A stretch of DNA of 64,000 bases, from positions 1-64,000 of the forward strand of contig CAVRZA010000011.1 in assembly GCA_963725665.1 (NCBI GenBank), read 5' to 3'. The notes beneath the pieces are model-generated. The model was not told the DNA's origin and did not search any database. It worked only from the letters and a program-made list of their open reading frames with translations. The position numbers and the translations under genes were made by a program. The DNA is from an uncultured Actinomycetes bacterium (lineage in GTDB: Bacteria; Actinomycetota; Thermoleophilia; UBA2241). This document shows, in pieces, positions 22,065-43,643 of this stretch. Position 1 is the first letter of the stretch, and every line of letters starts with the position of its first letter.

Positions 22065-22189
22065 GTGCTCCTCCCTTGGTCGACCTACGGTGAGGATAGC
22101 TACCCCCCAACGGGCCAATCCATGCTTTGTGTGGAGAGACGCTACACTGCTCCTCCAGGAGCGGGCAGATCGAGAGGAAAGGGGTCACC

Positions 22190-23689
22190 GTGAGGCGAGG
22201 GCGCGACGAGCTATTGGGGGTTCCTCCAGTAGGAGCGCGCAGCTACTGGCTCTCCCAGGCCCTGCGCGCCGACGCGGGACAGCCCTGTCCTGCGCTGCGC
22301 GATACGACCGAGGCCGACGTATGCATCGTCGGCGGCGGGTTCGCCGGCCTCTGGACGGCCTATGAGTTGACCGAACGGGAGCCGGCTCTCGACATCGTCC
22401 TGGTGGAAGCAGACGTGTGCGGCGCCGGCGGCAGCGGCGCGAACGGTGGCTTCTTCTCGTGCTCCTGGCACCAGGTGACCTCGCTCTGTCACTTCTTCGG
22501 CGAGAGCGAAGGCGTGCGCTACGCGAGGGCACTCGCCGATCAGGTGGCGGACCTCGGGAAGTGGTGTGCGAAGCACGACGCGCACATCGACTACCACCAC
22601 GAGGGCATCGTGTACGCGCGCGCGGAGGAGTGGCAGCCCGGACCGAGCGCGGAAGGGATGGCGATCATGGCCCGCCGTGGCCTTTCCGACCGCCTGCGCC
22701 CGGCGGACGCCGAGAAGGCGCGGCGAGTCGCAGACTCGCCGCGCCTCCTCGGCGGCGCCTTCACGCCCGATCTGGCCACGGTGCAGCCGGCGAAGCTCGC
22801 CCGCGAGCTGCGGCGCGTACTGCTGGAGCGCGGCGTGCGCATCTTCGAGGGCACGCCGATGCGCCAGGTGCACCCCGAGGCGCGGCCGGTCGTGGAGACT
22901 CCCGGCGGCCGTGTGCGCTCCGAGCAGGTCGTGGTGACGACCGGCGCGTGGGCCGCCGGGATGCCCGAGTACGGCCGCGCCTTCGCCGTGTGCACCGATT
23001 TCATGGTCGTCACCGAGCCCATCCCGGAGCTGGTCGAGAAGATCGGCTGGACGACGCACACCGGCTTGGCCGACTCGCGCGAGATGCTCTACTACCTACG
23101 GCGCACCGACGACGGCCGCATCGCCATCGGCGGCGGCGGCATGGGCGCCGTCTTCGGCGCCCGCATCCGCGGTCGCGCCCTCACCTCGCGCCGTCTGGCC
23201 GAGGCGGCAGCCCACGGCCTTCTGTGGCTCTTCCCGCAGCTAGAGGGAGTGCGCTTCGACGCCGCCTGGAGCGGCCCCATGGACCTCACGCGCGCCGGCG
23301 TGCCGTTCTTCACCACTTGGCCGGGGGGCACGGTGCACACTGGCCTCGGCTTCTCCGGTCACGGGCTCACGCCCACGAGGGTCGGCGGCAAGACGCTGGC
23401 CTCGCTCGTCCTGCGGATCGACGACGAGTGGAGCAGCCTGCCGGTCGTCGGCCCACCCCTCTCGACGGTGCCACCCGAGCCCATCCGCTGGCCGCTCGTT
23501 CAGGCCGTCTCGTGGATCTTCGAGAGCGGTGACCGTGCCCAAGAGCAGGGACGGCCGCGCGGAGCGCTCCGGGCGGCCGCCGGCCGAGCCTTCGACGCCT
23601 ACTGCAGGACGCTCCCCGGGGACGGGCGGCGAGCAGCGGCGAAGGGCAGGTCGAGCGAGTCCCACAGAAGCAAGCTGACGCGCGGCTAG
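22190..23689 (+). CDS. FAD-dependent oxidoreductase, DAO/PuuB-like
   Basis: SYWL, IVGGGFAGLWTA, GGSGANGG, VQPAKLAREL, WSGPMD, GFSGHG, PPEPIRW. Confidence 0.85.
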   Translation: MRRGRDELLGVPPVGARSYWLSQALRADAGQPCPALRDTTEADVCIVGGGFAGLWTAYELTEREPALDIVLVEADVCGAGGSGANGGFFSCSWHQVTSLCHFFGESEGVRYARALADQVADLGKWCAKHDAHIDYHHEGIVYARAEEWQPGPSAEGMAIMARRGLSDRLRPADAEKARRVADSPRLLGGAFTPDLATVQPAKLARELRRVLLERGVRIFEGTPMRQVHPEARPVVETPGGRVRSEQVVVTTGAWAAGMPEYGRAFAVCTDFMVVTEPIPELVEKIGWTTHTGLADSREMLYYLRRTDDGRIAIGGGGMGAVFGARIRGRALTSRRLAEAAAHGLLWLFPQLEGVRFDAAWSGPMDLTRAGVPFFTTWPGGTVHTGLGFSGHGLTPTRVGGKTLASLVLRIDDEWSSLPVVGPPLSTVPPEPIRWPLVQAVSWIFESGDRAQEQGRPRGALRAAAGRAFDAYCRTLPGDGRRAAAKGRSSESHRSKLTRG

Positions 23690-23921: not shown

Positions 23922-24563
23922 ATGCCAAGCAGGTCTGTGCTCACTTTGCGGGGCGTTCCCTGGGTCGCCGGCAGCCTCCTCCTGGTCCTGGCCGGGGTCA
24001 GTCTGTACTTCTTCACGGGCGCCGCCGCCAGTGAACCCTCGAAAGCGACGGCGCCCACTTCGGGTGACATCACCTACGGGCCCGCCGACGCGGCGCTGTC
24101 GGTCATCGAGTACTCCGACTTCCAGTGCCCGTTCTGCTCCGAGTACGCCCCTATCATGGCGACGCTGCGCGAGAAGTACGGGGATCGGGTCCAGTTCGTC
24201 TTCAGGTTCTTCCCCCTCTCCAACCACGAGTACGGCATGATCTCCGCGCAGGCGGCATACGCAGCCTTCCTGCAAGGCAAGTTCTGGGAGATGCACGATC
24301 TCCTCTTCAACAATCAGAAGGAGTGGTCGGAATCCGCCGACCCTACCCCGTACTTCGATTCCTACGCGAAGAGCCTCAGCCTGGACATCGATCGGTTCCA
24401 CACGGACATGAACGCCCAGACCACGATCGACTTCATCAACGCGCAGAAAGCGGAAGGCGAGCAGGCCGGGGTGACTCACACGCCGTGGTTCGTCGTGGGC
24501 GACTCGGCCGTGCTGCCCCGCAGCCTCGGTGAGTTCGAGAAGCTGATCGAGGCCGGCCTGTGA
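23922..24563 (+). CDS. DsbA-family thiol:disulfide oxidoreductase, N-terminal membrane anchor
   Basis: EYSDFQCPFC, FRFFPL, GKFWEMHD.LF, GV..TP (cis-Pro). Confidence 0.9.
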   Translation: MPSRSVLTLRGVPWVAGSLLLVLAGVSLYFFTGAAASEPSKATAPTSGDITYGPADAALSVIEYSDFQCPFCSEYAPIMATLREKYGDRVQFVFRFFPLSNHEYGMISAQAAYAAFLQGKFWEMHDLLFNNQKEWSESADPTPYFDSYAKSLSLDIDRFHTDMNAQTTIDFINAQKAEGEQAGVTHTPWFVVGDSAVLPRSLGEFEKLIEAGL

Positions 24564-25210
24564 GCCGCCGCCGCACCGCGAAGCGTCGCCCCACCACGAC
24601 CTCACGCGGCACGAATCCGGCCCCGGACCCCAAGCCGGCTGCTGACGCCAGGTCAGCCTCGAACCCCAAGTCGGCCTCGAATCCCGAGTCGGCCTCGAAT
24701 CCCGAGTCGGCCTCAAATCCCAAGTCCGCCTCGGACCGCGATCCGCCCCCCAAGCCACGCCGCTGGGTGCCGTGGTTCATGGCGGGAGCGTCCTACATCG
24801 GGTTCGTCATCTCCCTCTACCTCACGTTCGTGCACTACCGGGGCTACGTCTCGCCCTGTTACGTCGTGCACGGATGCGAGCAGGTGCAGACCAGTCGTTT
24901 CTCCGTGATCATGGGCGTCCCGCTGGCGCTCCTGGGCACCGTCTTCTTCGCCGTCATGTTCTATCTGGCTATCGGCCTGCTGACCAGGTCCAGCGTCACG
25001 CTGGTGCGTGCCTATAAGGTGCTGGCCTACGCCGCGGCGCTGGCGGTGATCCCCTTGTTCCTGATCCAGGCCATCAGCCTCAGAGCATTCTGCTCCTATT
25101 GCGTCGCCACTGAGGCCATCATGCTCTCGATGTGGATAGTGAGCTTCCTGCTGACGTCCTCTGCCGAGAGCGGCGCAGCTCCCGCAGTCAGTGGCCGGTC
25201 TGAGCGCTGA
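24560..25210 (+). CDS. Vitamin K epoxide reductase (VKOR) family protein
   Basis: Loop Cys pair CYVVHGCEQVQTS, GVPLALLG, active-site FCSYC; GTGA overlap with dsbA. Confidence 0.88.
   Translation: MSRRRTAKRRPTTTSRGTNPAPDPKPAADARSASNPKSASNPESASNPESASNPKSASDRDPPPKPRRWVPWFMAGASYIGFVISLYLTFVHYRGYVSPCYVVHGCEQVQTSRFSVIMGVPLALLGTVFFAVMFYLAIGLLTRSSVTLVRAYKVLAYAAALAVIPLFLIQAISLRAFCSYCVATEAIMLSMWIVSFLLTSSAESGAAPAVSGRSER
24653..24733 (+). repeat. In-frame 18-bp tandem repeat (about 4.5 copies; SASNP[KE])
   Basis: tcagcctcgaaccccaag / tcggcctcgaatcccgag x2 / tcggcctcaaatcccaag / tccgcctcg. Confidence 0.9.
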
Positions 25211-25333
25211 GGCACACGCGCCTGCTGCGACCACTCGCAGCTTGGACTGACAACGTCGAACTGACTCTGCCGCCAGACACGGGGCGACCTGTGCTATGGG
25301 CTGCCGCGCAGGGCCAGCCGCCACGGAGACAAA

Positions 25334-25371
25334 GGGAGGGCCGGGCCGCTCGCGAGCGGCCCGGCCCTCCC
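25334..25371 (-). terminator. Terminator hairpin (perfect 38-bp palindrome) after MCO-1, possibly bidirectional
   Basis: GGGAGGGCCGGGCCGCTCG|CGAGCGGCCCGGCCCTCCC followed by TTTG on the minus strand. Confidence 0.8.
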
Positions 25372-25394
25372 GGGTCGTTATGTCAACTCCCTCC

Positions 25395-28300
25395 TTACGG
25401 CAGCGTGCTCACCGTGATGATCGGCGACCACGGCGAGTTGCCCACCCCGTTGACGCCGCGGATGCGGTACTGGTACGCGGTGCCGGGGGTGCGTCCGGTG
25501 TTGCGGTAGCTCGTCACGTTGGCGGCCGTGGTGACCACAGTGGTCCAGGTGGTCAAACCGACACGGTGACGCTGGATCCGGTAGCCGGTCTCGTTCGATG
25601 AGACGTCGTTCCAGGCCAGCGTGATGGAGGTGCGGGTGCGCCCAGTACTGCGGAAGTTGGTGGGCGTTGCCGGAACGGTAGTCACGGTGATCGTGTTCGA
25701 CCAGGCCGAGGCACCGCTCAGGTTGTACGCCTGGACGCGGTAGTAGTAGGTCGCGCCGTGGGGCACCGTGTTCGTGAACGTGGCGACGTTGGCGCCCCGG
25801 GAGAACGTGACGAGGCCGGTCGTGAACGCCGAGTTGGTGGCGCGCTGGAGCGTGAAGCCGGTCTCGTTGGTGGCGTTGTCGGTCCACCTAATGGCGACCG
25901 AATCCGGGCCCGCCGCCGTCCTGGTGATCGTGCGCGCCAGTCCGGAGGGAGCCGCCGGTATGGTCGGCACCGCGACGGTCCCGGAGGTGGCCCACGCCGA
26001 GGAACCGGACAGGTTGAAGGCACTGACCTGGTAGGCGTAGGTGTCGCCCGGGGTCACGACCAAATCGATGAACCCCACCATGTTCGGACCCAGCACGGCG
26101 ATCGTAACGAACGCGGTGCCGTTCACGGAGCGCTGGATCGTGAAGCCGGTCTCGTTGTTCGCGTTGTCAGTCCAGGTGACAGCGATTTGCAGACCGGGCT
26201 GTTGCGTCGCGCCCACGGCCGACGGGGCCGCCGGGATGCTCGGCACGACCACTCGGGCCGGGCCCGCCCACGCCGAGGCCCCGGTCAGGTTGAAGGTACT
26301 CACCTGGTAGTCGTAGGTGTTGCCCGGGGTCACGGTCGTGTCGGTGAACGCGGTCGCGTTGGCCGCCAGCAGCGCGATCGTCGCCCACGCTCCGCCGTTG
26401 TCGGAACGCTGGATCGTGTAGCCGAGCTCGTTGGTTGCTTTGTCGACCCAGGCCAGAGCGACCTGTGGCCCGGCCTGCAGCGTCGCCGTCAGGTTGGTCG
26501 GAGCCGCCGGGATGGGCGCCACGACCACGGTGGCCGTGTTCGACCAAGCCGAGGCTGCAGCACCGTTGTCCGCCCGGACCCGGTAGCCGTAGGTGTTGCC
26601 GGGGGCCGAGGTCGTGTCGGTGTAGGTGACGGGGCCCGTGGGGGACCGGCAGGTTGGCCGGCAGCGTGGTGAGCGTCGCCCAGGCCCCGCCGTTGTCGGC
26701 GCGCTGGACCGTGAAGCCGGTCTCGTCGGTGGCGTTGTCGGTGAAGTTGAGATGGACCTGCGGACTGCCCTGCGCGGCCGTCAGGTTGGTCGGAGCCGCC
26801 GGGACTGGCCCTGTGAACATGGTGGCGGACACCGACTGGACCGTCATGCTCGGGAACTCCGCCCCGTAGCCGACCATGTTCCTCGCCACGACTCGATACC
26901 CGGACACGACGGTCGGGTCGTAGGTCGCAGAATCGGTCAACGTCCGGGATCCGTGGATGTTCGGCTGGTCCAGCGGCGAGTCGCTGGTCGCCAACGTCGA
27001 TCCAGCCGGTGCCGCTGCCAGTCGTTCTCTGCACCAGGAACGACGTCTCGGTGATCGAGTTGTCGTTCCAGGTCAGCTCCAGGTTGTTACTCGCGTTGAC
27101 CGTGAAAGTCAGCCCGTCCGGCTTGATCGGCGGCAGCGCCACCGACACCGGCCGCATCATGTCCATCTCCTCGTGCGACAGGATGTGGCAGTGGTAGACG
27201 TACTCCCAGCCGAAGTTGACCAGCCCGTTGACGATGTTGGCCGTCGGGTTGCCTTGCGGGTCGACGTTGTTGAACCCGGTCGTCGCGTCGCTGGGCATCA
27301 TCGGGCTCAGGTTGCGGATCGAGTTCGGCAACTCCAACGGGACCTGCGGGATGACGGGCCGGACGGCCACGATCGTGTCCTCCAGCGGGCTCACCCTGAC
27401 GGTCTCCTTCCAACCCAGCTCGTTCGGGTCGGGCGGGATGATGATGTTGTCCCACGTGACCCGGTTGATGACCTGCACGTTCCACAGGTGCCAATGGATC
27501 GGGTGCGTATCCACCCCGTTGTGCGTGATCTTCCAGATCTGCGTTCCATCGGCCGCCGACGAGATCGGCGTGACCTTCACGTCGCCCGCCGGCAGGTTCG
27601 TCCCGTCGATGAGCTCTGTGGAGGGGTTCACGTACGGGTACAGGATGATGTTCTGGAGCAGCGGGTCCGCATTCGGAGCTTCGAGGCCGAGGTTGGCCTG
27701 CATCCTTCCGTACTCATCGAACGAGGTGGAGTTCATCTCGTCGTGGAGGCCCTTCGGCTGGAATGGGATCTGTAGCTTCCCCGTCCCAGGCGCGTAGGCC
27801 GACCTCAATCCGTTGAAGCCGAACAGGTCGGTCGGGTGGTTGCCTTCCGCGATCCTCGCGTAACCGTCACAGCGGTTCGCTGCGGTCCCCGTCACGCCGG
27901 GGGCGTTGCACCAGCCCTGGGCAACGAAGTTCGTGCCGTACGCGCTGTTGTACGCGGCCTGCCCGACGATGGTCGGATCGGACCCGGACTCAAAGACGCC
28001 CGAGCCGTCCGCGTGATGGCGGAACGCGGCGTTCAGCGTCGCCATGTTGAACGACACTGCGCCGGCGTTCGAGACTTGGACCTTCATGATGGTCCGCGTG
28101 TTCGGGCCGTACCCAGGTAGGGTGCTCGGCGCACCGACCGGGCTAAGGTCCGGGTCCCCCGTGTAGTAATCGTACGATGCGACCCTCGCCGGGAACGCCG
28201 CCGGAGCGTCGTTGTAGAGGATCAGCGTCTTGCCCGCGAACTGCGAGAAGTCGACGATCACGTCGGCCCTTTCAGCGGGCGCGAGCAAGAGCGCGTGCTT

Positions 28301-30937
28301 GTCCACGTTCCCGACATCGAACCGCGTCGGGTCGGTGATCCAGGTGATGGGCTGGTTCGGAACGACGACCGGGGCCGGGAGGAACCCGCCCTCGGTGCCG
28401 ATCTGGATGAACTTCGGTCCCTCCGGACTCAGGTTCGTGTCCGGCGTCGGGAACACGTTCGGGTCCTGCTGAGCGGCGGCAACTTCGCTCGCCTTCAGCG
28501 CGACCTCGGTCCCCGTGGAATCGGCCACGTACCACTGCAGGTTCCAGAAGCGGTCGTTGGCCGCGTTCAGGATGCGGAAGCGGACCGGAACCGGGTCGAC
28601 TTGCGTCGTCGGGTACGCCTGCCCGTTCACGACCGGCGTGTCGTTGAACTGCTCCATCCCCACCGAGATGTTCGGTGTGCCGGGGATCAACTGCGGCTCG
28701 CAGAAGGCGGCCGTGTTCGGGTCGCAGTTCGGGTCGTAGTACGGGTTGTCGATGGGACCGTTCGCCGGTGATGCCGGCGGCCAGAACCACGGCCCGTACA
28801 TCCACCGACCGAACGCGCTCATGCCCGACGGGTCGCCGGGGTTCTGAGCAGGCATGTACACGTGGTGGTTCCAGAGGTTGCCCTCACCGCCCCACCGCGC
28901 GTAGTCCCAGGTCGGATCCTGCTGAGCCATCTGCGCCGGGCTCGGGACGAACGTCTTGTCCTGGATGACGAGCGGCGTGCCGTAGCCGAGACCCGCGAGG
29001 GCCCCGTTCAGCAGCTTCGTCTCCGTCGCGTCCGTGAGAAGGTACCCAGCAGCCTCGCCCGCGTACACGTTGAGCCGCGTGATCCCCCATGCGTGGTCGT
29101 GGTAGAACATCAGCCGGGCGGACTGCTCGTTCGTGTAGTAGAACGTCTGGCAGCCATCGTCCTTCGCGTTGCAGACGTTCATGTCCGGCACGTTCTGCAC
29201 GCTCACACCCTGGGGGTAGCCCGTCTGCTCGCTCGCGGGTGTGATCCATTGGTGCGGCGTCCCATCCGAGATCCACGGCGTGATGCCGCCGTGCAGGTGG
29301 AGCGTCGCGCGGTTCTGGGTGAAGCAGTCGTTCGGCATCCCCGGCATGAACCCCTCGGTACACATCGGGTTGCGGACCCCGTCCATCACGGTGCCGTCGT
29401 TCGTCGGGGCTGCCGCCGTCGAGTTCGGGCCCATGCCCGAGCCCATGATGGTCGAGTCCACCGGCAGGAACAGGTCGCCGTCACTCTGGGTCGGGAGCAG
29501 GTTGTGGAACACGATCCGGGTCGCCGTGTCCTTGACGGCCACGATGGTCGGCCCGAGGTACTGCGGATTCGTGACTCCGACAGCCTGCACGCCGTTGATG
29601 AGCGCCGGGACCTGGATGTACTGCCCCGGGACGTTCGGGTCCTTCACCGTGTTCGTCAGCGGGAACCCCGCCCCTCCAACCCCACGAGCCAAGAGGCCCG
29701 GAGTCTGGATCTGGACGTAGCCACGAACGAGCGTCGGAGGCAGGTCCGACGAGAACTTCATCTGGTACTGGACCAGCGCGATCTCGTAGGTGTCATTGCC
29801 TGGGAACGTTTTCGTTCCGTCCGTCCAATCGGGATCTGCGACCGCGAGCGGGATCTCCTTGCTCCCGTCGTTCTTACACGCGGGCGCGAGCGCACGCACC
29901 GTGTCCGGGTCGCACAACCCCGGCAGCGGATCCTGGAACTTCTTGATGCCGCCCGCCGTGACGTAGCCCGCGCCTCCAACGAGGTTCGTGAAACCGGTGA
30001 CCTCGCCGATGGCAGCCTTCGCCGACGCCAACGCGCCGGTTCCGGGGCCACCGCTCTTGTCGGTGATCAGGACGACCGGGTCCGCCACGTAGCCCCCGCC
30101 GAAGGTGTCGAGCGACACCGACTGCACGAAGAGCGACGACGTGACGACCGCCCCCGAACCACCGGGCCGGATGGGATCGAACTGCGTCCCGTCCAGGATG
30201 GCGACACCCGGAGCGTTCGTGTAGCCAGAGCCCGGCGTGTCGAGCACGATGCCCGTGATGGTCACCTCGCCGGGTGAACCATCCACCGGGTTCGGAGTCC
30301 CGATGCAACCGGTCTCGACGCACGTGACGTGCGCCGAGGGCACCGTGCCGTTCGGGTCATCCGGCAGGTCGAACGCGACCGTCGGGATGTGGTACTTGGC
30401 CGTAATCCCGGTTGTGTCGATAGCGAGGTTGTCCACGCCACCGAACACGGTTCCCGTCGCGTCCGTCGTTCCACCGGAGAACGCGACGACCGGGTGTAGG
30501 TAGCCCGACCCCCCAGCATCCACGCTCACCGGAGCTGCGACGGCTCCTGAGGTCGTGATGACCGGAGTGGCCGACGCGCCGCTTCCTGCCGTCGAATTGA
30601 AGGTGAACGTCGCGGTCGCATACCCGCTACCCGGATTCGTGATGGTCACGCCCGTGATGGCGCCGTTTGCTCCGACCGTCGCCGTTGCCTTTGCACCCGT
30701 CCCGTCCCCGCCGACATCAACCGTGACGGCGGGCAAGGTGAGCGGGCTATTCGCCCAGTTCGGATACGGCCCGAAGTAGTGAGGTACTTTCGATTCGTCG
30801 GTCGGCGAGCCGGGCATGGCAAAGCCCTGGCCCACCGTCAACAGTAACAAAGTCGTCACCAAGGCTACCGCCACAAAGCCCAGGACGCTGAGCTTCGCCA
30901 ACGACATCCGTCTGATTGCTCTTACGCTAGAACTCAT
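25395..30937 (-). CDS. Giant secreted multicopper oxidase with C-terminal fibronectin type III repeats (OmpB/MofA-like), about 1850 aa; frameshifts near 26990 and 26640
   Basis: Signal peptide; ATLHLHGG, MFYHDH, THPIHWH, YHCHILSHEEMDMM Cu motifs; six FN3-like W.DNA.NETGF repeats across ORFs 26489-30937, 26167-26994 and 25395-26528. Confidence 0.88.
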
Positions 30938-31489
30938 GAGACCCCTCTTTCGACCTCTAGCTCGCTTCAGTCACATAGCCATTGCTGGCGTGGCGCGTGA
31001 TGTGGCTCTTGACCCGCCGTCCCCGTCGCACGGTCCCCGAGACCGGCGCGGCGACAAGCCAAGCTCATCCGCAGATCCGGCTGCGGTCTACGAGCTGTCC
31101 TGCTAGAGCATCCACGACCCCCTTTGCCTCCCAGACGCGAAGCCAGCGGAGTTCCCCGGCCGCGCTCCAATCCGGGCGACTGATTGCGGACGACTGATGG
31201 TAGTACGCACGACAGGACTTAGCACTACAGACACAGTGTTATCCGTTGCCGGCTCTGGATTCGATGTGAGGCTAACTGGCGGCGGTCGAAGATCCGGCCT
31301 CATCTGTCTGCACTCGCCGGCAAAGGCGGAAGCCCTCGCTGCTGGCCGGCTCAGCGACCGGCCTTTGGGGTGCGAGGAGGAGAACGGCCGCCCCAGGAAG
31401 GCAGACTTACGAGGGTCACCGTAGTCCATAGGGTCACTGTCGGCGCCGTTACGCTGTGCCCCAAGCGGTATGTGTTGTCAGGGAGGACG

Positions 31490-31785
31490 TGATGCGCCTG
31501 CTACGGGCGGGTCTTCGGTGACACGATTCTCCACTACGGGTGGGGATCGGCCTGCTCACCGGGTCTGGGGTGACGCTCGTGCCTTCCTAGAAGGTGCCGG
31601 CCCTCGCCGGGGCTTTGGCCGTGATCCCTCTGTTCCTGCTTCAGGCTCCAATCCCGATAGCGTTCTGTTCCCACTACGTCGCCGCCGAGGCCATCGTGCT
31701 CTCCATGCGGGTGGTGAGCTTCCCGCTGACGCCGTCCGGGCAGAAGGGGAAGGCTGCCGCAGCCACCGCGACGCTGATGGGATGA
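31490..31785 (+). pseudogene. Decayed duplicate of the VKOR 3' half
   Basis: GIGLLTGSGVTLVPS*KVPALAGALAVIPLFLLQA..FCSHYVAAEAIVLSM.VVSF aligns with VKOR AIGLLTRSSVTLVRAYKVLAYAAALAVIPLFLIQA..FCSYCVATEAIMLSM; internal TAG, CxxC lost. Confidence 0.8.
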
Positions 31786-31850
31786 GGCACATGTGAACGC
31801 ACCCGCCACTGCCACACCCCCGCCGCACCGAAGGGTCCGTGGCCTCAACG

Positions 31851-31887
31851 ACGAGGGCCCGGGCGCTTTTCGCGCCCGGGCCCTCGT
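31851..31887. terminator. Terminator hairpin between the VKOR relic and MCO-2
   Basis: ACGAGGGCCCGGGCGC-ttttc-GCGCCCGGGCCCTCGT, 16-bp stem. Confidence 0.75.
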
Positions 31888-32015
31888 TTGCTGCTATCTG
31901 TCTAGGTCTTCAACTCCTGCCCTCTGCCTCCTTTCGTGAAGCCGGGGAGAAACTCTCCGGCGCCGGCCGAGGCCGGCGCCGGGGCTCGATTGATGCAGCA
32001 GCTACTGACTTACGG

Positions 32016-35000
32016 CTACGGCAACGTCCTGCCAGAAACCACGGGGGTCCAGGCGCTGTTGCCCGCGGCGGTGACTGTCCGGACGCGGTAGTAGCGAGTG
32101 GTGTTGACGGGCAACCCCGTGTTCGTGAACGTGGTTGGGCTGATGTTGTTGGCGACGGTGGTCCACCCACCGGCGCCGGTGTTGCTCCTCTGGACGTCGA
32201 ACATGATCGGCCCGGGTGCGCCGTTCGATGTGTAAGTCCAGGAGATGACGAGGGAGGTCCTGCCAGCCGGTGCCGCCGGAGGCGTGACCGTCAGGCCGGT
32301 CGGAACCGCTCCGATCGCCGGTGGTGTCGTGGCCGAGGCCGTGTTCGACCAGGCCGAGGGGCCGCTCGCGTTGAACGCCCGCACCCGGTAGTAGTAGGTG
32401 GTATTGGCCGCGCGGCCGGTGTTGTTGTACGAGGTCTGGTTGGCCCCGTTCAACGTGATGGTGGAGGTCCCGGTGAAGTTCGGGTTCGTTGCTCGCTGGA
32501 TCGTGAACCCGGTCTCGTTGTTGGCGTTGTCGGTCCAGGCCAGGTTGATCTGGTTAGGACTGACCGCCGTGGCGATGAGGCTCGATGGAGCAGCCGGCGA
32601 GCCCGCGACGGCGGTGAAGGCCGAGGCGATGTTCGACCACGCCGAGAAGCCGTTCGCATTGAAGGCCCTGACGCGGTAGTAGTAGGTGGTGCTGGGCGCG
32701 CGGCCGGTGTTGTTGTACGAGGTCCGGTTGGCCCCGTTCAACGTGATGGTGGTCAGGGACCCCCCGGTGAAGGCCGAGTTCGTGGCCCGCTGGATCGTGA
32801 ACCCGGTCTCGTTGGTGGCGTTGTCCGTCCAGGTCAGGTTGATCTGCGTCGAGCTGACCGCCGTGGCGACCAGGCTCGATGGGGCAAGCGGTATCGGGTC
32901 GACGACCTGGGTGAGCACGGCGCTCGTGCTGCCGGCGAAGCTCGCGTCGCCGCTGTAGACCGCGGTGATCGCATGGCTGCCGGGGCCGAGGAGGGCGGTG
33001 GAGAATGTGGCGCTCGTGCCGGCGAGCGGGATCGCGAGTATCGCGGTCGCGCCGTCGAAGAACTGGACCGAGCCGGACGGGCTGCCGACCCCGGACAGGA
33101 CCGCCACGGTCGCGGTGAACGTGACCGACGTCCCGAAGGGTGACGGGTTCAGGCTGCTCGCGAGATCGTCGAGGTGGCGCCCTGGTTCGACGACCTGGTC
33201 GAGCGGCGCACTCGTGCTGGCGAGGAAGTTCGGATCACCGCTGTACGTCGCTGTGACCGGGTGCGTGCCGACCGTCAAGCTGGAGGTGGTGTAGGTCGCG
33301 ACGCCACCGCTGAGCGTGCCGGTGCCGAGGCTCGTGGCGCCGTCGAAGAACTCGACCGTGCCGGTGGCGGCAGCCGGGCTGACCGTGGCGGTGAAGGTGA
33401 CGCTGTCGCCGAAGATCGACGGATTCAGGCTGCTCGCGAGGTTCGTCGTGGTGGCCGCCTTGTTCACGACCTGGTCGTATGGCGGCGCACTCGTGCTGCC
33501 CAGGTAGACGGCATCACCGCCGTACACTGCGGTGATCGGGTGCGTGCCGGCCGGCAAGCGCGGTCGTGGCGAAGGTCGCGACGCCACCGCTGAGCGTGCC
33601 GGTGCCGAGGCTCGTGGCGCCGTCGAAGAACTCGACCGTGCCGGTGGCGGCGGCCGGGCTGACCGTGGCGGTGAAGGTCACGTTCTGTCGCCGACGAGTC
33701 GACGGATTGATGTCTGCTCGTCACGGTCGTCGTGGTGGCCGCCTTGTTCACGACCTGGTCTAGCGCCGCACTCGTGCTGGCCAGGTAGGCGGCATCACCG
33801 CCGTACACGGCTGTGATCGGGTGCGTGCCGACCGGCAAGCGCGGACGTGGCGAAGGTCGCGACGCCGCCGCTGAGCGTGCCGGTGCCGAGGCTCGTGGCG
33901 CCGTCGAGGAACTCGACCGTGCCGGTGGCGGCGGCCGGGCTGACCGTGGCGGTGAAGGTGACGTCTGTCGCCGACGAGTCGACGGGATTGAGACTGCTCG
34001 TCACGAGTCGTCGTGGTGGGTCCGCCAGCTGGACCAGGATCACGTTCGAAGGTCGAATCACCCGCGGCGTTCCAGGCGATGACCCGGTAGTTGTAGGTCG
34101 GATGGTCGGATCGGGCGGAATGTCGGTGTAGGTGGTGACGTTCGCCAGGGCCGTCGCGATCTGCGTGTAGTCCGGGACCCACCCGTTGACCTCGGCTCGC
34201 TCGATGCGGAAGCCGATCTCGTTCTTGGGGTTGCCCCAGGTGGTCGGGTTGAGGTAGTCGACGGGCGTGCCGTCGGTCCAGTTGAGGATGACGCTGCCCC
34301 GGGTGAACGTGAGGACAGGTGCGTCGGGGACAGCGCTGGCCACGTAGACCGTCACCGGCCGCATCATGTCCATCTCTTCATGGCTCAGGATGTGGCAGTG
34401 GAAGACGTACTCCCAGCCGAAGTTGACGACCTCGTTGACGATCGGCGCGATCGGGTTGCCGTGCGCGTCGGTGTTGTTGAACCCGGCTTCCGTCCCGTTC
34501 GGGCCGTTCTGCGATCCCCTCGCGCCGATGGGCATCATCGGGTTGAGCGGACGCTCGCTGTCGGGGACGCCGAACGGGAGCGCCGGCACGATCGGCCGCA
34601 CGGCCACGATGGTGTCCTCGAGCGGGCTGACCCGGACGGTGTCCTTCCAGCCCAGCTCGGTCGGTTCGGGCGGGATGATGATGTTGTCCCAGGTGACCCG
34701 GTTGATCACCTGCACGTCGTACAGGTGGAAGTGGATCGGGTGCGTGTCCACCCCGTTGTGGGTGATCTTCCAGATCTGGGTCCCGTCGTCGGCCGAGGAG
34801 ATCGGGGTCACGTCCAGGCTGCTCGGCAGCCCGCTCGAGTCCAGGACCTCGGTCGCCGGGTTCACGTACGGGTACAGGATGATGTTCTGGAGGAGCGGCG
34901 TGGCGCCCGGCGCTTCGAGGCCCAGGTTGGCGGTCATCCGCCCCCATTCGTCGAAGTTGGCCGAGTTCATCTCGTCGTGGATGCCCTTCGGCTGGAAGGG

Positions 35001-38000
35001 GATCTGCAGCTGCGGGCCAGTGCCGTCCTTGGCGGGGCCCAGGGTGTTGAACTTGAACAGGTCGGTCGGCTGCGAGCCTTCCTGCGATCCGGGCGTACCC
35101 GTCGCACTTGGCGCTCGGATTGGTGGGGCTGTTGCACCAGCCGCTGCCCACGAAGTTGGTGCCGTAGGCCGAGTTGTAGGCGGCCTGGCCGACGATGATC
35201 GGGTCCACCGAGGACTCGAACACGCCGGACCCGTCGGCCTGGTGGGCGAAGGCCGCCACGAGCGCGCCCATGCGGTCGGCGGTGGTGTTCGGCCGGTCGA
35301 AGGCGACCGCCGGCGCCGCGTTCGACACCTTGACCTGCATGATGGTGCGGGTGTTGGGGCCATAGCCCGGCAGGGTGGTCGGGGCGCCGGACGGGCGTCA
35401 GGTCCGGGCCGCCGGTGTAGTAGTCGTAGCCGGGCACGCGCGCCGGGAACGCCGCGGGCGCATCGTTGTAGAGGATCAGCGTCTTGCCCCGGAACTGCGA
35501 GAAGTCGACGATCACGTCGGCGCGCTCGGCCGGCGCCAGCAGCAGCGAGTGCTGGTCGACGTTGCCCACGTCGAAGCGGGTCGGGTCGGTGATCCAGGTG
35601 GTCGGCTGGGCCGGGACGACGACCGGAGCGGGCAGGAACCCGCCCTCGGTGCCGATCTGGATCCAGTTCGGGCCCGCCGGGCTCCAGGTCGTGTCCGGCG
35701 TCGGGAAGACGACCGGGTCGGTCTGGGCGGCCGCGACCTCGGCGGGGTTCAGGGCGACCTCGCTGAGGGTCCCCGTCCTCGGGTCGGCCACGTACCACGA
35801 CAGGTTCCAGAAGCGGTCGTTCGCCGCGTTGAGGATGCGGAAGCGGTAGGCCTTCGGGTCGACCGTGGTCGTGGGGTAGGCCGTGCCGTTGACGATGGGC
35901 GTGTCGTTGAACGCTTCCATGCCCACCGAGACGTTCGGCGTCGACGGGATCAACGCCGGCTCGCAGAACGGCTGGACACGTTCGGGTCACAGGTCGGGTC
36001 GTAGTACGGGTTGGCGATCGGCGGGTACTTGGCGTCCTTGGCGGGCGGCCAGAACCACGGGCCGTACATCCAGCGTCCGAAGGCGCTCATGCCCGAGGGG
36101 TCGCCCGGGTTCTGGGCCGGCATGTAGACGTGCGGCGCCCAGAGGTTGCCCTCGCCGCCCCAGCGGTCGTACTGCCAGGTCGGGTCGACCTTGGCCATCT
36201 TCGCCGCGCTCGGCACGAAGGTCTTGTCCTGGATGACGAGCGGGGTGCCGACGCCCAGGCCCGCCAGGGCGCCTCCCGGGGCGATCAGGCTCTGCTCCAT
36301 CGCATCGGTGAGCAGGTAGCCGGCGGCCTCGCCGGCGTACACGTTCAGGCGGGTGATGCCCCAGGCATGGTCGTGGTAGAACATCAGCCGCGCGCTCTGC
36401 TGGTTGGTGTAGAAGAAGGTCAGCGCCCCGGGGCCCGGATCGGGCATGTCGGGAACGTTGCTCACGCTGACGCCCTCGGGATACGCGGTGTCCTCGCCAG
36501 CCGGCGTGATCCACTGGTGCGGCGTGCCGTCGCTGATCCAGGGGGTGATGCCGCCGTGCAGGTGCAGGGTGGCGCGGTTCTCGGCGAAGCAGCCCGTGGG
36601 CTTCGGGCCGGGCTCACCGCACATGGGGTTGCGCACCCCGTCCATGACGGTGCCCTGATCCGGCGCCATGTCCATCGGCACGCCGTTCGCGTCGAGCGTG
36701 CATCATGTCCGGGCCCGCGCCCGAGCCCATCATCGAGGTGTCGACCGGCAGGAACAGGTTGCCGCCGACGCCCGGTCGGCAGCAGGTTGCGGAACAGGAT
36801 GCGCACCGGCCTGTCCTTGGTGGCGACGATGGTCGGCCCCAGGTAGTGGGGGTTGTCGACGCCCGTGTAGCCCGGCGATCGGGGTAGCCGGGTAGGGTCG
36901 GATCGAGGTTCGCGTTGCTCAGCGGCACCTGGTTCCCAGGCACGACGCTCGTCGAGAGCTGCACGTAGCCGCGCAGCAGCGTGGCCGGCAGGTCCCGAGT
37001 GGAACTTCATGCGGTACTGGACGACCGCGATCTCGTAGTAGTCCGAGCCGGGGTAGGTGGTGGTGTCGGGGACGGCGACCGGGATGTACTGGCCGAGGTT
37101 GTTCGCGCCGGTCGGCCCGAGGCCGGGCAGCGTGTCGACGAACTTCTTGAGGCCGGGCGTGAGGTAGCCGGCGCCGGGGTTCGTGACGGTGATGGCGGTG
37201 ACGGCGCCCTTGACCGCGACCGTTGCCGTGGCGGTGGCGGGCACGGTTGCGGTCCCACCCAGGTCGGTGATGTCCACCGTCGGCGCGGAGTCGTAGCCCT
37301 GGCCGCCGGAGGTCACGTCGATCTGGCCGATGCCGATGGTCGCGTACAGCGGTGGCCGGCGTCGGCGCCGCCTGGTTGAGGGCCCCGTCCCAGGATCGTG
37401 ACCGTCGGCGCGGACGTGTACCCGGAGCCCGGGTTCACCACGGTCGACTCCGGTGACGACGCCGTTGGCGTCCATCGTCGCCGTGCCCGGTCGCCTGCAC
37501 GCCGCCGGGCAGGTTCGGGAGCGAGAACTCGACGATCGGCTGGATGGCGTAGCCGCTGCCGCCGTCGATCAGGGTGACGTTATCGACGCCACCGCTCGCC
37601 ACGGCTGTGGCCTGCGGACCGGTGGGGTTGCCGCCCGTGAGGGTGACGGCTGGGAGTGGTGAAGCCGAAGCCAGACTCGTTCACGGCGATGCTGTTGACG
37701 ACGCCGGTCGAGATCTGGGCCGTCGCGCTGGCCAGCGCCGTGGGGGTCACCCCCGGAGACGGTGATCGAGACGGTCGGGGGGAGAACGTAGCCGGCGCCC
37801 GGGCTGGTGACGGTGATGGCTGAGATGCCGCCCGTCTTCGGGTCGACCGTGGCCGTCGCCTGCGCGCCCGTCCCGGGATCCGCGACGGTGGGGGTGACGG
37901 TGGCCGCGATGGAGTACGTGCGGTCCTGCGTCGCGTAGATCGGGAAACCCGGGTCGCGCCGAGGCGTGATCGTGGCTGCCTTGGGCAGGCGCCAGCGGGC

Positions 38001-38692
38001 GTCGCCAGGGTCGGATCCGCGGTCGCCGGATAGCTGAAGGTATCCGGGTTCGCCGCTACACCGGTGTCGACGGGAATGCCTTCGCCGTAGAAGCCGATCA
38101 CGTCACCGGCCTGGACAGCGACGCCCGGCGTTACCGGGAATGTCGCCATGTTCAGATACGGCCGGATCGGCCAGTGCCGGAACGGTGAGCTCTCCACTGT
38201 CATAGACAACCTTGTATTGGTTGGCAGTACCGGTGGGGCGCAGCACGTAGGCATGGAACAGGTTGCCTGCGGACGGCGTGGGGCTGCTGCCCGGCGTTGC
38301 CTGGTTCCAGGTCTGGAAATTGTTGAGCGTGCCGGCAGGCAGCGGGGCGTTGGCAAGGACGACGAACACGGGGCCGAGTGTGCCCGGCGCCGTCGCGTAG
38401 TCGGTGGCATAGGCGCGCCCGACCAGCGGATTCCCGAAGGATACCGGCGTCGGGGTCCCCAGGCCGATCGTGACGATCGCGTCGGCGAGCACCTGCGGGC
38501 TGTTGGCCCAGTTCGGGTACGGCCCGAAGTAGTGCGGAACCTTCGACTCGTCCGTCGGCCCGAGCCGGGCGCGGCAAAGCCCTGGCCGACCGTCAACAGT
38601 AACAAGGTCGTCACCAAGGCTACCGCCACAAAGCCCAGGACGCTGAGCTTCGCCAACGACATCCGTCTGATTGCTCTTACGCTGGAACTCAT
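32016..38692 (-). CDS. Second giant secreted multicopper oxidase (about 2200 aa) with four bacterial Ig-like (Big_3-type) and FN3 repeats; heavily frameshifted in this assembly
   Basis: Same signal peptide as MCO-1; ATLHLHGG, MFYHDH, THPIHFH, FHCHILSHEEMDMM found across successive ORF fragments; C-terminal FN3 repeats in ORF 32016-33587. Confidence 0.8.
32905..34020 (-). repeat. Four tandem Ig-like domain repeats of about 280 bp within MCO-2 (three nearly identical)
   Basis: Repeated ctgagcgtgccggtgccgaggctcgtggcgccgtcga.gaactcgaccgtgccggtggcggc.gccgggctgaccgtggcggtgaagg block near 33310, 33590 and 33870. Confidence 0.85.
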
Positions 38693-39174
38693 GAGACCCC
38701 CTTCCGCAACTCCTGCAAAACACTCATGGACCTATCTGAACCCGTCAAAGCCCGCACGTCTTAAGCGTCACCCCCTGTGAGCCGCACCACGAACGTGGCA
38801 TGCCGCCGGTCTGGCGGGTATGACGCGCACCAGCGCAGCTCACCGGCCATCATCTCCGCTGCAGCGGCGGCCGAATACGGCCGTTCTACCTGACTTCCCC
38901 TGGACGAAAGGCATAGCCGACAGCGCGAGGACGCCGTGACGTCACGTCGCAGCCTCACCTGGGACGTAGGCCCTTTTGCAGCCATTTCTTGAGATCTCAG
39001 CTCCCCAGGAAGGGCTGCCGCAACCGACGCGTTGTCAGAACCGGCGACGGTGATTGGACGAACCCCGACCGCACGCGCGAAGCCTAGACCCCCGTTCTCG
39101 GGCGCATATCGAGGCCCGTTTCGTGTAGCCCGGTAGTACAATGCTTCAAAGCACCGGAATCTTGTGGGGGGGAC

Positions 39175-41264
39175 GTGAATCTCCTGGTCGTCTCGATGGG
39201 AGTCGCCGCCGGCGTCGGTATCGACGCTGCTCTGACCAACGGGCTGGCCGGCCTCTCGCACCGACCGCGTGACGGAGCCCGCCTCGCCTTCGCCGCCGCT
39301 GCCATCGCGGCCGCGGTGGGAGCCCTCTCAGCGGCTGCGCTCTATTCCGTCGACGACCCGTCCACGCACGTCGCCATCATGAAATGGCTGCTCTTCCCCG
39401 CGAGCGTTGCGTGGACCGCCGCGGCCGTCTGGCTGGTCGCCTTCTACACCGGGGTGCGACCGCTGCGGTTTCTCCTGGCGCTGACGGCGGGCTTCTGCCT
39501 GGTCGTCGCGATCAACCTCTGGCTTCCTCTGGGTCTCTACCACTCGAGACCGGTCGAGCTGCGGTCGACCGCGATGTTTGGATCCCATGTCATGCTCATG
39601 GCACAACCTTCGCCACACTGGGCAAACGTGATCACCAGCGCCCTCACGGCCATCGCGTTCGTCTTCCTCTACTACGCCCTCTTCAAGATCCTTGCCAGGG
39701 GGGAGCGCCGCAAGGCCGCCTACCTTGCGCTGGGCGTCGGGCTCTTCTCGCTCACCATGCTTCTGGACACCCTTGCCGACTACGGCCTCATCGTGAGCCT
39801 CTACCTCACGCAGCTCTGCTTCGCTGCCGTCGTTCTCATCATGAGCGTCGCTCTCCGCCACGAGGCGCTGCAGGCTGAGGCCGAGCTCCAGGGCTACCGC
39901 ACCCAGCTCGAATCGCTCGTCGACGCGCGCGTACGCGACCTCGACAAGGCCACAGATTTGCTTGAAGTGGAGATCCAGATCAGGACCGCGGCGGAGGAGT
40001 CGCTGCGCCAGCGTCTCACGGAGCTCGACGCGTTGCAGAACATCTCGCAGAGACTCGCCGACCGCACCGATCTGGACACCGCGCTCCACGCGGCGTCCAG
40101 CGAGATCAAGATGCTCTTCGAGGCCTGCCACGCGCGTGTCTACCTTCTCGACGAAGGCCCCGCCGCGCCGGCCGACACGTCCGCCGCAGACGGGGGCTCG
40201 GCGATCACGGCGGCGGGGTCGGCGGACGAGACTCGCCTGCTGAAGCAAGCCATTGATGGCCGCGAGCCGCTGGCCGTCGAGGATCCCGCCTCGGCCCTGC
40301 TGCCGCCCGGTATCGCCGAACCGTTGGTGACCCTGGGGGTACGTCACTTGCTGCTCGTCCCCATGGTGGCCCGCAGCGAGGTCGTCGGCGTTCTCGCCAT
40401 CGCCCGTGACGAACGCGGCTCTGCTTTCTCATCCCGAGAAGCCACCCTCGCGCGGACCGTCGCCGACACGCTGGCGGCTGCGGTGCGAGACTGAGCACCT
40501 GCATCAGCGCGAGACGAGGCAGGCCGCCGAGGACGAGCGGCAGCGGCTCGCACGCGACCTTCACGACGCGGTCACGCAGAGCATCTACTCGGCGAGCCTG
40601 ATAGCCGAGGCCTTGCCGGCCGTCTGGGAACGAGAGCCCGACGAGGGGCGGTACAACCTCGTGCGGCTCCGTCGCCTCGTGCGCGCCGCGCTTGCGGAGA
40701 TGCGCACGCTGCTCTTCGAGCTCCGACCGGGAGCGCTCGAAGCGGCGCCGCTGGACACGCTGCTCGAGCGGCTCGGTGACGCGCTCAGCGGACAGGCGCA
40801 GATCCCGGTCGACGTGAGCGTCGCGGATAAGGACAGCCTGCCGTCCGATGTGAAGATCACCTTCTACCGGGTGGCGCAGGAAGCCTTCAGCAACATCGCC
40901 AAGCACGCGCGCGCCTCGCAAGTGAGGGCTTCGCTGACCGACGACGAGCAGCAGGTCACACTGACCGTCGAAGACGACGGGCGCGGCTTCGACCCGGAGG
41001 CGATCGAGCCCGAACGCATGGGGCTGCGCATCATGCGCGAGCGGCTCGATCGCATCGGCGCCTCGCTAGAGGTCAGCAGTGCAGCCGGACGCGGGTACCC
41101 GCCTCGTGGCGGTATGGCCGCGTCCCGCCGCTGGAGAACCACCTGAGGACGGGCAGCCTGGGGATGCCCGGCCTCGCGGCGAACAGCCTGAGGACGCACG
41201 ACCTACGGATGGAGAGGGGAGACGTGAGCTATCGGGCTCGCATTCGAGTGCTCATAGCCGATGA
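39175..41264 (+). CDS. Membrane sensor histidine kinase (about 7 TM, GAF, HisKA_3, HATPase); frameshifts near 40490 and 41095
   Basis: ERQRLARDLHDAVTQSIYS H-box, QEAFSNIAKHA, EDDGRGFD, MGLRIMRER; GAF LLVPMVARSEVVGVL. Confidence 0.85.
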
Positions 41265-41853
41265 CCACTACATGGTCCGTGAAGGACTCAGGGTCTTCCT
41301 GTCGGCGCAGGAGGATCTCGAGGTGGTGGGCGAGGCAGCCGACGGAGCCGAGGCGGTCGAGCAGTGCCGGCGGCTCCAGCCCGACGTCGTGCTCATGGAC
41401 GTGCTGATGCCGGTCATGGACGGCGCCGAGGCGACTGCCAGAGTCAAGGAAGAGTGGCCGGAGATCCAGATCATCGTCCTGACGAGCTTCGTCGACGAGA
41501 AGCTCGTTCAGCGTGTGCTCGACGGCGGAGCCATCAGCTACCTGCTCAAAGACGCCCGGCCCGAGAAGCTCGCGCAAGCGATCAGGGACGCCTACCGCGG
41601 CCGCGGCAGCATCGACGCCAGCGCCATGCAGGCCCTGATGAACAAGAAGGACGAGGTGGGACACGACCTCACGCCGCGTGAGCGCGAGGTGCTGGCGCTG
41701 CTCGCCGCCGGCCTCAGCAACAACGAGATCGCCGAGAAGCTGACGCTGAGCCCCGGCACCGTTCGCCTTCACGTGAGCAACGTGCTGGCCAAGCTCGACG
41801 CACCGAACCGCACGAGTGCGGCCATCATGGCCATGAAGCACGGGCTGGCATAA
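41224..41853 (+). CDS. NarL/LuxR family response regulator
   Basis: IRVLIADDH, PDVVLMD..MP.MDG, YLLKD, LTPREREVL..L..GLSN.EIA..L HTH. Confidence 0.93.
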   Translation: MSYRARIRVLIADDHYMVREGLRVFLSAQEDLEVVGEAADGAEAVEQCRRLQPDVVLMDVLMPVMDGAEATARVKEEWPEIQIIVLTSFVDEKLVQRVLDGGAISYLLKDARPEKLAQAIRDAYRGRGSIDASAMQALMNKKDEVGHDLTPREREVLALLAAGLSNNEIAEKLTLSPGTVRLHVSNVLAKLDAPNRTSAAIMAMKHGLA

Positions 41854-42021
41854 GACCCACGTCGAGACCGCTGCACCTATCACACTCGTCCATGCGAAGA
41901 CATGCCGTTTGCCCGTACTACACTTAGTGGTTCAGACGGATGATGCGCGCGGAGGAGGGCTGCGGCGCCGGCGGCAGCCGCCGGGAGCCACGGGGAACGA
42001 GATCTCAAGGAGGCTATCCCC

Positions 42022-42382
42022 TTGCGTGTCTTGCTGGCGACGGACCGGCCGCATCTGGGCGATGCCCTGTCTCTCTTTCTCACCGAGCGGCACATCGACG
42101 TCGTCGCCGTTGCGTCCGATGCCCACGAACTGGTCAGCTCTTGCCGTGGCCACACACCCCCGCGTCGTCCTCGTCGATTGGCAACTGGCGGGAGCCGGCT
42201 CGGCCGGGGTCCTCGCCGATCTCAAGAACTGCGAGGAGCCGGCCCACATCATAGTGATGGGCACGGCCGAGGAGCGAGTCCTGGCCCAGATGGCGGCGGC
42301 CGACGGTTACGTCACGCTCGGCGACCCCCCAGAGGCGCTGCTCGAGGTCCTGCGCGAGGTGGCGCCGACCGCAGGTAGGTGA
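42022..42382 (+). CDS. Stand-alone atypical receiver-domain protein; frameshift near 42150
   Basis: MRVLLA.D...L...L, PRVVLVDW.L, ADGYVTLG (conserved Lys absent); AAGGAGG SD before TTG. Confidence 0.6.
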
Positions 42383-43553: not shown

Positions 43554-43643
43554 TCTCGTGGCCTGTATCGGCCCTCGGCGCGAACCCTTTATGTGGGAGA
43601 ATCAGCGCGCCCCGCAACGGTGGGGCCGGACGAGGAGGATGTG

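Follow-up and report, generated by a model that had tools for sequence, protein, structure and literature searches.

A dedicated DsbA-VKOR pair and a candidate NarL-type operator accompany OmpB/MofA-like multicopper oxidases in Thermoleophilia

Multicopper oxidases (MCOs) of the OmpB/MofA family are abundant in soils and sediments and are taken in genome surveys as markers of iron reduction or manganese oxidation; their chemistry is unsettled. In the described OmpB/MofA gene cluster, according to PMC5566968, genes for SCO1, a mono-haem cytochrome and an FKBP protein lie beside the oxidase. In Actinobacteria, 46 MofA homologues have been reported (bioRxiv 10.1101/2022.11.10.515945), and PMC12227724 gives OmpB genes in 33 Microbacterium genomes. 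Here we analyzed a locus from an uncultured bacterium of the class Thermoleophilia (assembly GCA_963725665.1, contig CAVRZA010000011.1, positions 1 to 64,000, forward strand) in which two oxidases of this kind, MCO-1 and MCO-2, accompany genes for DsbA, VKOR and a two-component system. This 64,000-nucleotide stretch, hereafter the window, opens contig C11 of a host genome of 3.73 Mb (68% GC, 12 contigs). The dsbA and VKOR genes (+) converge on the two oxidase genes (-), and the kinase, regulator and receiver genes (+) diverge from MCO-2, an arrangement that an earlier reading of the sequence (the original prediction) had placed correctly. The features on which the argument rests are as follows.

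23922..24563, + strand: DsbA-like thiol oxidase (Thioredoxin_4/DSBA), with a CPFC active site and one N-terminal membrane helix
24560..25210 (start approximate), + strand: VKOR, which re-oxidises DsbA; PF07884 above cut-off
25395..30937, - strand: MCO-1, ~1,846 amino acids (aa); signal peptide, GSGY-repeat region, three-domain copper core, six FN3 domains
32016..38692, - strand: MCO-2, ~2,220 aa; four copper motifs complete, tail of FN3 and four Big_3 Ig domains
38876..38915, - strand: conserved two-part box and candidate operator for the NarL-type regulator, ~190-220 nucleotides (nt) 5' of MCO-2
39175..41146, + strand: sensor kinase, with about 7 transmembrane helices, GAF, HisKA_3 and HATPase; one frameshift near 40490
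41164..41853, + strand: NarL/LuxR-type response regulator, REC and GerE; true start probably slightly downstream of 41164
41878..41917, + strand: second, weaker copy of the box, 5' of the receiver-only gene; score 24.1, genome rank 2
42022..42382, + strand: receiver-only protein; one frameshift near 42130

The DsbA and VKOR encoded here are the sole matches in the genome to PF13462 and PF07884, respectively. Their genes are adjacent, and the proteins retain their catalytic cysteines (CxxC in DsbA; the loop Cys pair and CxxC in VKOR). Across 301 genomes of the class, orthologues of this DsbA (E <= 1e-55, with one extra, truncated case, G059, under the threshold) occurred in 22, confined to families f1 and f4, and the oxidase family occurred in 45. 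The oxidase family was present in 20 of the 22 genomes with the DsbA orthologue (two of the 20 having a copper-less paralogue only), versus 25 of 279 without it, or 18 of 89 when the latter group was restricted to f1 and f4. No oxidase was found in the DsbA-bearing genomes G314 and G336, which are 80% and 88% complete. The oxidase gene lay within 10 kb of dsbA in 13 of the 22 genomes and at 27 kb in one more, and four pairs were near contig ends. Of 75 loci carrying a non-orthologous DsbA, 39 of which span 9 kb or more, none held an oxidase. VKOR matches in G008 and G011 were rejected as support because they are not orthologues, and were counted in the negative group. Three Thermoleophilia loci share DsbA (58-68% identity), VKOR (58-72%), kinase and regulator (66-70%), and a metagenome scan starting from DsbA returned orthologues at 5 of 80 loci, all on contigs shorter than 2.2 kb, one of them flanked by NarL, receiver and VKOR genes. 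The link between DsbA-VKOR and the oxidase is real, and the synteny with oxidase and two-component system that was to be checked in relatives is conserved.

Two observations concern the pair itself. The window's VKOR carries a long N-terminal extension of tandem SASNPKS/SASNPES-type repeats (24560-24740, +) that the compared orthologue lacks, and in one relative cbb3-type oxidase genes stand directly 5' of DsbA-VKOR (L072:16387-21255).

The original prediction had pointed to many non-catalytic cysteines in short paired loops of MCO-1. We located the four loops it named at residues 206, 589, 738 and 1010 and found two further pairs (342/354 and 526/538); MCO-1 has five pairs in the core and a sixth in the repeat region, and MCO-2 has three conserved pairs. 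Over 116 sequences, the five core positions held both cysteines or only one in 30/1, 69/11, 27/7, 80/1 and 61/2 cases, and of 83 unbroken cores having at least two extra cysteines, 79 had an even number. Within f1 and f4, 17 of 19 genomes that have the Dsb pair showed at least one complete Cys pair, versus 0 of 18 that lack it; this count left out G030, G372 and G357 (copper-less form only), the broken G354, G314 and G336, and three of its cores were partial. In genomes first read after the idea had been formed, the corresponding figures were 8 of 10 and 0 of 6. In three genomes (G049, G032 and G029) orthologues of the kinase and regulator remain, with neither VKOR nor extra cysteines; these genomes nest among Cys-paired relatives, and the pattern reads as loss. 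Among 50 of the best 80 GTDB genomes, VKOR or DsbB was present in 33 of 40 with paired cysteines versus 0 of 10 without, 8 of these 10 being one Firmicutes clade. This co-occurrence fits a general rule set out in PMC12453122, by which anaerobes keep cysteine out of the proteins they export and Actinobacteria rely on VKOR. The co-variation strongly supports the view that the oxidase cysteines would be disulfides made by the DsbA-VKOR pair, and the proposal of disulfide maturation gains from both the paired gain and loss of cysteines and the co-occurrence with the Dsb pair.

Alignment of the regions upstream of the oxidase revealed a conserved box of 38 nt. We built a two-part matrix from six relatives, with the window excluded, and scanned the 3.7-Mb host genome. 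Three hits exceeded 17 bits, namely those 5' of MCO-2 (42.7, rank 1), of the receiver gene (24.1) and of a CotA-like oxidase (C11:636192; 19.4). In held-out loci the box 5' of the active oxidase scored 50.6 (L072), 28.7 (L073) and 36.8 (L126, a close sister of a box-training locus), while ten loci without the regulator reached at most 18.3, and the best scores of 59 control loci had a median of 8.4 and a maximum of 23.1. Since control scores reach 23.1, the second and third genome hits are suggestive only. Orthologues of the kinase sensor domain were found in 6 of 60 relatives, in each case next to such an oxidase, in keeping with a dedicated two-component system. The box 5' of MCO-2 is a likely operator, which the NarL-type regulator would bind, and we take the two-component link to be real for MCO-2; the proposed regulation is thus supported, with the regulator-type box carried by MCO-2, where it ranks first genome-wide, and not by MCO-1.

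Several observations surround this regulatory picture. With a shorter, 16-nt matrix, the second-best hit (C1 ~572100-573200) was inside a coding frame and was gone with the longer matrix. The CotA-like enzyme is a third, secreted oxidase of the host (C11:634085-636192, L165), with a weak box 5' and no extra cysteine in its mature part; in G012, too, a CotA-like oxidase gene follows the regulator genes. At L043, L050, L058, L066, L078, L087, L113 and further loci of Chloroflexota, the oxidase likewise comes after a HisKA_3 kinase of another kind, a NarL regulator and a small receiver-like gene, and the regulatory layout therefore reaches beyond Thermoleophilia.

Judged by sequence, the enzyme itself is not new: MCO-1 and MCO-2 belong to the known and widespread MofA/OmpB-like family. 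At least 736 matches were confirmed in GTDB, the best 80 of which, with identities of 43-74%, fall in Actinomycetota, Chloroflexota, Geomonas/Geobacter, Desulfobacterota and Clostridia; anaerobes, Clostridium and Pelotomaculum among them, make up many of the hosts in the matches listed. Of 8,000 proteins scored in a further search, 6,640 were matches, with the best 120 at 64-76% identity once the window's own protein was excluded. In the Geobacter-genome family the oxidase was present in 37 of 61 genomes, and 20 of its loci showed a mono-haem partner of ~560-620 aa in 14 cases and an SCO1-like gene in 8; Pfam confirmed FKBP and SCO1 in both loci tested. We used Geobacter-family oxidases lying in mofB/mofC/SCO1 clusters as proxies for the OmpB and MofA sequences. 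The window's MCO core is 49-54% identical to nine of them, which upholds the likeness to OmpB/MofA, and falls in a sister subclade of a quick IQ-TREE phylogeny (approximate likelihood-ratio support, SH-aLRT, only; 125 of 126 rows; the host's CotA-like enzyme chosen as root). The outcome that the original prediction had named as its refutation, grouping with ordinary CotA or bilirubin oxidases together with a linkage to DsbA-VKOR and the two-component system that relatives do not keep, was not obtained. In the window region around the oxidases we found no mofB (FKBP), mofC-like cytochrome or SCO1 gene. In six other loci (L064, L072, L073, L117, L120 and L161) the same cluster includes an oxidase paralogue that is a lipoprotein and no longer has the type-1 Cys or most His ligands, in most cases accompanied by DUF4418, an FtsX/MacB permease and an ABC ATPase; a search with the oxidase core found no such copper-less paralogue in the host genome.

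Both proteins carry the HLHGG, FYHDH, HPIH[WF]H and HCHILSHEEMDMM copper motifs with Met as the axial ligand, and both have the size, signal peptide and FN3 domains characteristic of OmpB/MofA, which agrees with two secreted MCOs with FN3/Ig tails (the lengths above allow for frameshifts). The tail of MCO-1 consists of six FN3 repeats and that of MCO-2 of about four FN3 and four Big_3 Ig domains. Structure prediction, which had been proposed as a check, was run on the 946-residue core of MCO-1 with AlphaFold and gave a model of three cupredoxin domains (predicted local distance difference test, pLDDT, 83; predicted template-modelling score, pTM, 0.90) matching CotA in Foldseek at E 3e-34 (template-modelling score by target 0.77-0.80, 19% identity). 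The match covers the whole CotA length, and ~440 core residues are therefore insertions. By sequence, MCO-1 matched the CotA subfamily in patches only, with NCBIfam PhsA/CueO far under cut-off, and in a search of structures no member of the OmpB/MofA family closely matched a solved one. The GSGY-repeat region (29918-30820, -) gave a confident all-beta model (pLDDT 89) that had no Foldseek match at E 0.001; its best VIA match was a T4 tail-sheath domain (Z 4.3), and there were weak PHROG hits to phage virion or baseplate proteins.

The tails do not bear out the predicted stalked, surface-projecting form. Neither an LPxTG motif nor a C-terminal membrane helix was found in them, and thus no covalent surface anchor; the genome does encode one sortase. 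One marginal hydrophobic window in the tails is located within an FN3 repeat. Twin-arginine-like residues are not conserved.

We examined the integrity of MCO-2 separately from the question of substrate. MCO-1 has two frameshifts, near 26980 and 26640, whereas MCO-2 has 19-22, depending on the reference used. With only 2 frameshifts in 19.8 kb across 18 other genes (~0.1 per kb) against ~3 per kb in MCO-2, this gene is unusually broken, and one could read it as a decaying pseudogene superseded by MCO-1, the more so as the adjoining VKOR copy has truly decayed. Yet 18 of the 22 events relative to reference P0072 are +1 insertions, no in-frame stop occurs over about 1,990 aligned codons, the gene retains 75-85% identity and all ligands, and the box 5' of it scores best in the genome. 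Orthologues in four other few-contig genomes likewise have 19-25 shifts and zero stops. We therefore regard a pseudogene as improbable and consider that the frameshifts are very probably read or polishing errors. Sixteen public runs were available, with a small share of the organism in all; the reads of four were short pieces, some near-identical, and the mapped runs showed heavy cross-mapping from other organisms' oxidases.

How might such a unit work? We picture it as portable and made of three parts, a sensor with its regulator, an exported giant oxidase of laccase type, and a disulfide-forming pair of its own. The kinase would activate the NarL-type protein, which would bind the box 5' of MCO-2 and, as the conserved box suggests, probably those of the receiver gene and the distant CotA-like oxidase. 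The oxidase may be exported unfolded through Sec, as its sequence suggests, and loaded with copper outside the cell; within the core insertions, the short Cys loops would be closed by DsbA, itself re-oxidised by VKOR with quinone. Lineages of this kind otherwise lack DsbA-VKOR, so Cys-rich oxidases would persist almost only with the pair. Uptake of single electrons from a donor at type-1 copper and reduction of O2 to water at the trinuclear site are established chemistry of the MCO fold; here the donor of the Met-ligated type-1 copper would presumably be extracellular Fe(II) or reduced humic quinones. When air enters an anoxic habitat, the enzyme could in this way remove O2 and regenerate electron acceptors for the host's multiheme cytochromes. 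The FN3/Ig tails may hold the oxidase on the wall or on particles, and as no anchor was found the attachment would be non-covalent.

At roughly even confidence, we favor a secreted oxidase that matures through disulfides and, where oxic and anoxic zones meet, reduces O2 with Fe(II) or humic quinols as donors; in the architecture alone, a dedicated foldase and regulator, our confidence is high. A single haem-copper oxidase is encoded in the host genome, whereas none is seen in 19 of 36 members of its family; the host also has many multiheme cytochromes, with up to 21 CxxCH motifs in one frame, and a homologue of the 21-haem protein occurs in 10 of 14 oxidase-positive family members versus 5 of 22 oxidase-negative ones. 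Recurring neighbours of the oxidase include a di-haem peroxidase at 5 loci and a cbb3-type oxidase at one. It was this haem-copper and multiheme content, together with the peroxidase and O2-enzyme neighbours, that led us to favor O2 removal with Fe(II) or humic quinols over its rivals.

Some of our own results pull the other way. MCO-1 and DsbA are without a box (16-nt matrix scores of 4.4 and 6.7), and the kinase GAF matches generic GAF domains only. Nine of the 22 DsbA genomes have no oxidase within 10 kb (G314, G377 and G302 have none nearby), one genome has the Dsb pair and regulators and no oxidase that we could find, and G362 and G302 combine the Dsb pair with a pair-free oxidase only. 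Among the GTDB genomes outside these families with Cys-paired oxidases, 7 of 40, of unstated completeness, gave neither VKOR nor DsbB. Cysteine content also tracks the oxidase subclade, and since kin are not independent, part of the signal reflects shared descent. The multiheme link comes mostly from one genus.

One rival function is that of a MofA-like Mn(II) oxidase that would lay Mn oxides at the cell surface. The 49-54% identity to oxidases of mofB/mofC/SCO1 clusters fits it, and MofA has been purified with Mn-oxidising activity, but deletion of mofA left Mn oxidation in place (bioRxiv 10.1101/2022.11.10.515945), so that even for MofA the role of Mn oxidase is doubtful. The window region lacks the mofB, mofC and SCO1 genes, and many family hosts among the matches listed, including Clostridium and Pelotomaculum, are anaerobes. 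On general grounds, moreover, a Met-ligated CotA-type site is poorly suited to Mn(II), and we consider Mn oxidation by MCO-1 or MCO-2 unlikely. Another is an OmpB-like accessory role in Fe(III)-oxide reduction, whether as an electron relay to insoluble oxides or for attachment on them under anoxia. The O2-reducing trinuclear ligands, of which a pure relay would have no need, are fully conserved. Of the ExxE iron-binding motifs described for OmpB, the core of MCO-1 has none (the stitched MCO-2 core has 2 and four homologues have 0-3, core regions only), the unit contains no cytochrome gene, and the 21-haem homologue is missing in 4 of the 14 oxidase-positive family members; such a role seems improbable.

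It is also conceivable that the two kinds of oxidase which seemingly share the box form a cuprous oxidase regulon switched by copper and serving its detoxification, for small MCOs often oxidise Cu(I) and the CotA-like gene of G012 comes after the regulator genes. The recurring neighbour families, assessed by eye and by Pfam on selected members, nevertheless include no copper ATPase or chaperone, the kinase is of the HisKA_3/GAF rather than the CusS/CopS type, and a tailed enzyme of 200 kDa would be costly for the task, which makes this account unlikely as well. An oxidase of phenols, lignin or humic polymers, acting in carbon acquisition or matrix cross-linking, is in our estimate the least likely of these readings: it agrees with secretion, with the CotA/bilirubin-oxidase fold and with FN3/Ig tails like those of extracellular hydrolases (a weak CbhB match), but by eye no aromatic-catabolism or glycoside-hydrolase genes recur beside the oxidase, and enzymes of peroxide and O2 do so instead.

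A broader version of the favored O2-removing function is a doubtful but consequential possibility. In anaerobic Thermoleophilia that reduce metals or humics, the unit could form the centre of a regulon for oxygen pulses, in which an undescribed sensor would govern two kinds of copper oxidase through the shared box, a horizontally moving DsbA-VKOR would license disulfide-rich oxidases in lineages that elsewhere shun cysteine, and re-oxidation of Fe(II) or humic quinols would recharge the acceptors. If true, this would provide the OmpB/MofA family with its first defined regulator, operator and foldase and with a unifying job.

The history of the locus was also considered. Two further features lie between the genes.

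25334..25371, - strand: terminator-like hairpin of 17 pairs between the converging VKOR and MCO-1 genes; consensus match only
31530..31785, + strand: decayed 3' half of a second VKOR copy, with an in-frame TAG and the second Cys of CxxC lost

The VKOR remnant follows MCO-2 and is 77% identical in DNA to the intact VKOR over 186 nt, and the signal-peptide DNA of MCO-1 and MCO-2 is 96% identical over 140 nt. Despite the latter figure, simple tandem duplication of one oxidase was rejected, as the two cores are ~75% alike and fall in different supported subclades. In G012 the order of regulator pair, oxidase, VKOR and DsbA is that of the window, with a single oxidase. In a likely course, the oxidase-VKOR end would have been duplicated and one of the two cores then exchanged for that of a different donor. 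The Dsb pair thus adjoins oxidases of three subclades. A GC-rich hairpin (~31853-31886) in the gap separating the VKOR remnant from the end of MCO-2 resembles by eye the one at 25334-25371; terminator-like consensus matches numbered 4, versus 8.0 expected in shuffles, and a sigma-70 promoter scan gave no match.

The flanks (21540-23689 and 43593-45092) encode an AhpC-type peroxiredoxin, a flavin (FAD) amine oxidoreductase and an MttB-family methyltransferase, none of which recurs beside the oxidase in relatives except for a distant MttB at 2 loci. Elsewhere in the genome, large multiheme cytochrome clusters at C2:35000-49300 (L166) and C11:412600-415200 (L167) have 7-21 CxxCH motifs per frame, and several of the cytochromes begin with a membrane helix; the C2 cluster seems in part to be duplicated or wrongly assembled.

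We found no paper linking a multicopper oxidase with DsbA and VKOR in the literature searched, which left aside most subscription journals, and none of the titles seen on Thermoleophilia and multicopper oxidases concerned such a unit. That the module is undescribed in monoderm actinobacteria, as had been suggested, thus appears to hold for the module and does not hold for the enzyme family, already reported in Actinobacteria. Support is good for the dedicated foldase and the operator, neither of which seems to have been described before; as a member of its family the enzyme is ordinary, and the co-variation of paired cysteines with the Dsb pair points to what may be a self-contained, switchable surface oxidase unit. 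The unit offers handles on a poorly settled chemistry, namely a predicted operator and a regulator whose signal would reveal function. As presumed disulfides are retained or discarded along with their dedicated foldase, it also provides a natural experiment. Those who express these oxidases should supply an oxidative-folding pathway or choose cysteine-free natural variants.

The closest described proteins, OmpB of Geobacter sulfurreducens (GSU1394) and MofA of Leptothrix discophora, are likewise very large secreted three-domain MCOs with an FN3 tail. In contrast to the oxidases of OmpB/MofA clusters, those of the window belong to a sister subclade, have 3-5 Cys pairs at other positions, come from a monoderm host and are accompanied by DsbA-VKOR, a HisKA_3/NarL pair and a conserved box. 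CotA laccase and bilirubin oxidase resemble MCO-1 in fold and in the Met-type T1 motif, but the CotA core is about 505 aa versus 946 aa, and MCO-1 adds an N-terminal repeat region and tails. MnxG has a six-domain core with MnxE/F partners; compared with it by description alone, the MCO-1 model is three-domain, with CotA-type top fold matches. NarL/DosR-type systems share with the window's a HisKA_3 and GAF kinase, a REC-GerE regulator and a two-part operator-like box, which may resemble DosR sites; the window's system differs in reaching no curated family cut-off and in having a single GAF with no haem-GAF structure match. MdbA-VKOR is another actinobacterial pair of the DsbA-VKOR type. The mycobacterial DsbA/VKOR described in PMC12453122 is, like ours, an adjacent membrane-anchored pair with its catalytic cysteines kept. 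Unlike housekeeping actinobacterial DsbA-VKOR, the pair described here is restricted to 22 of 301 class genomes in two families, and travels with one client family.

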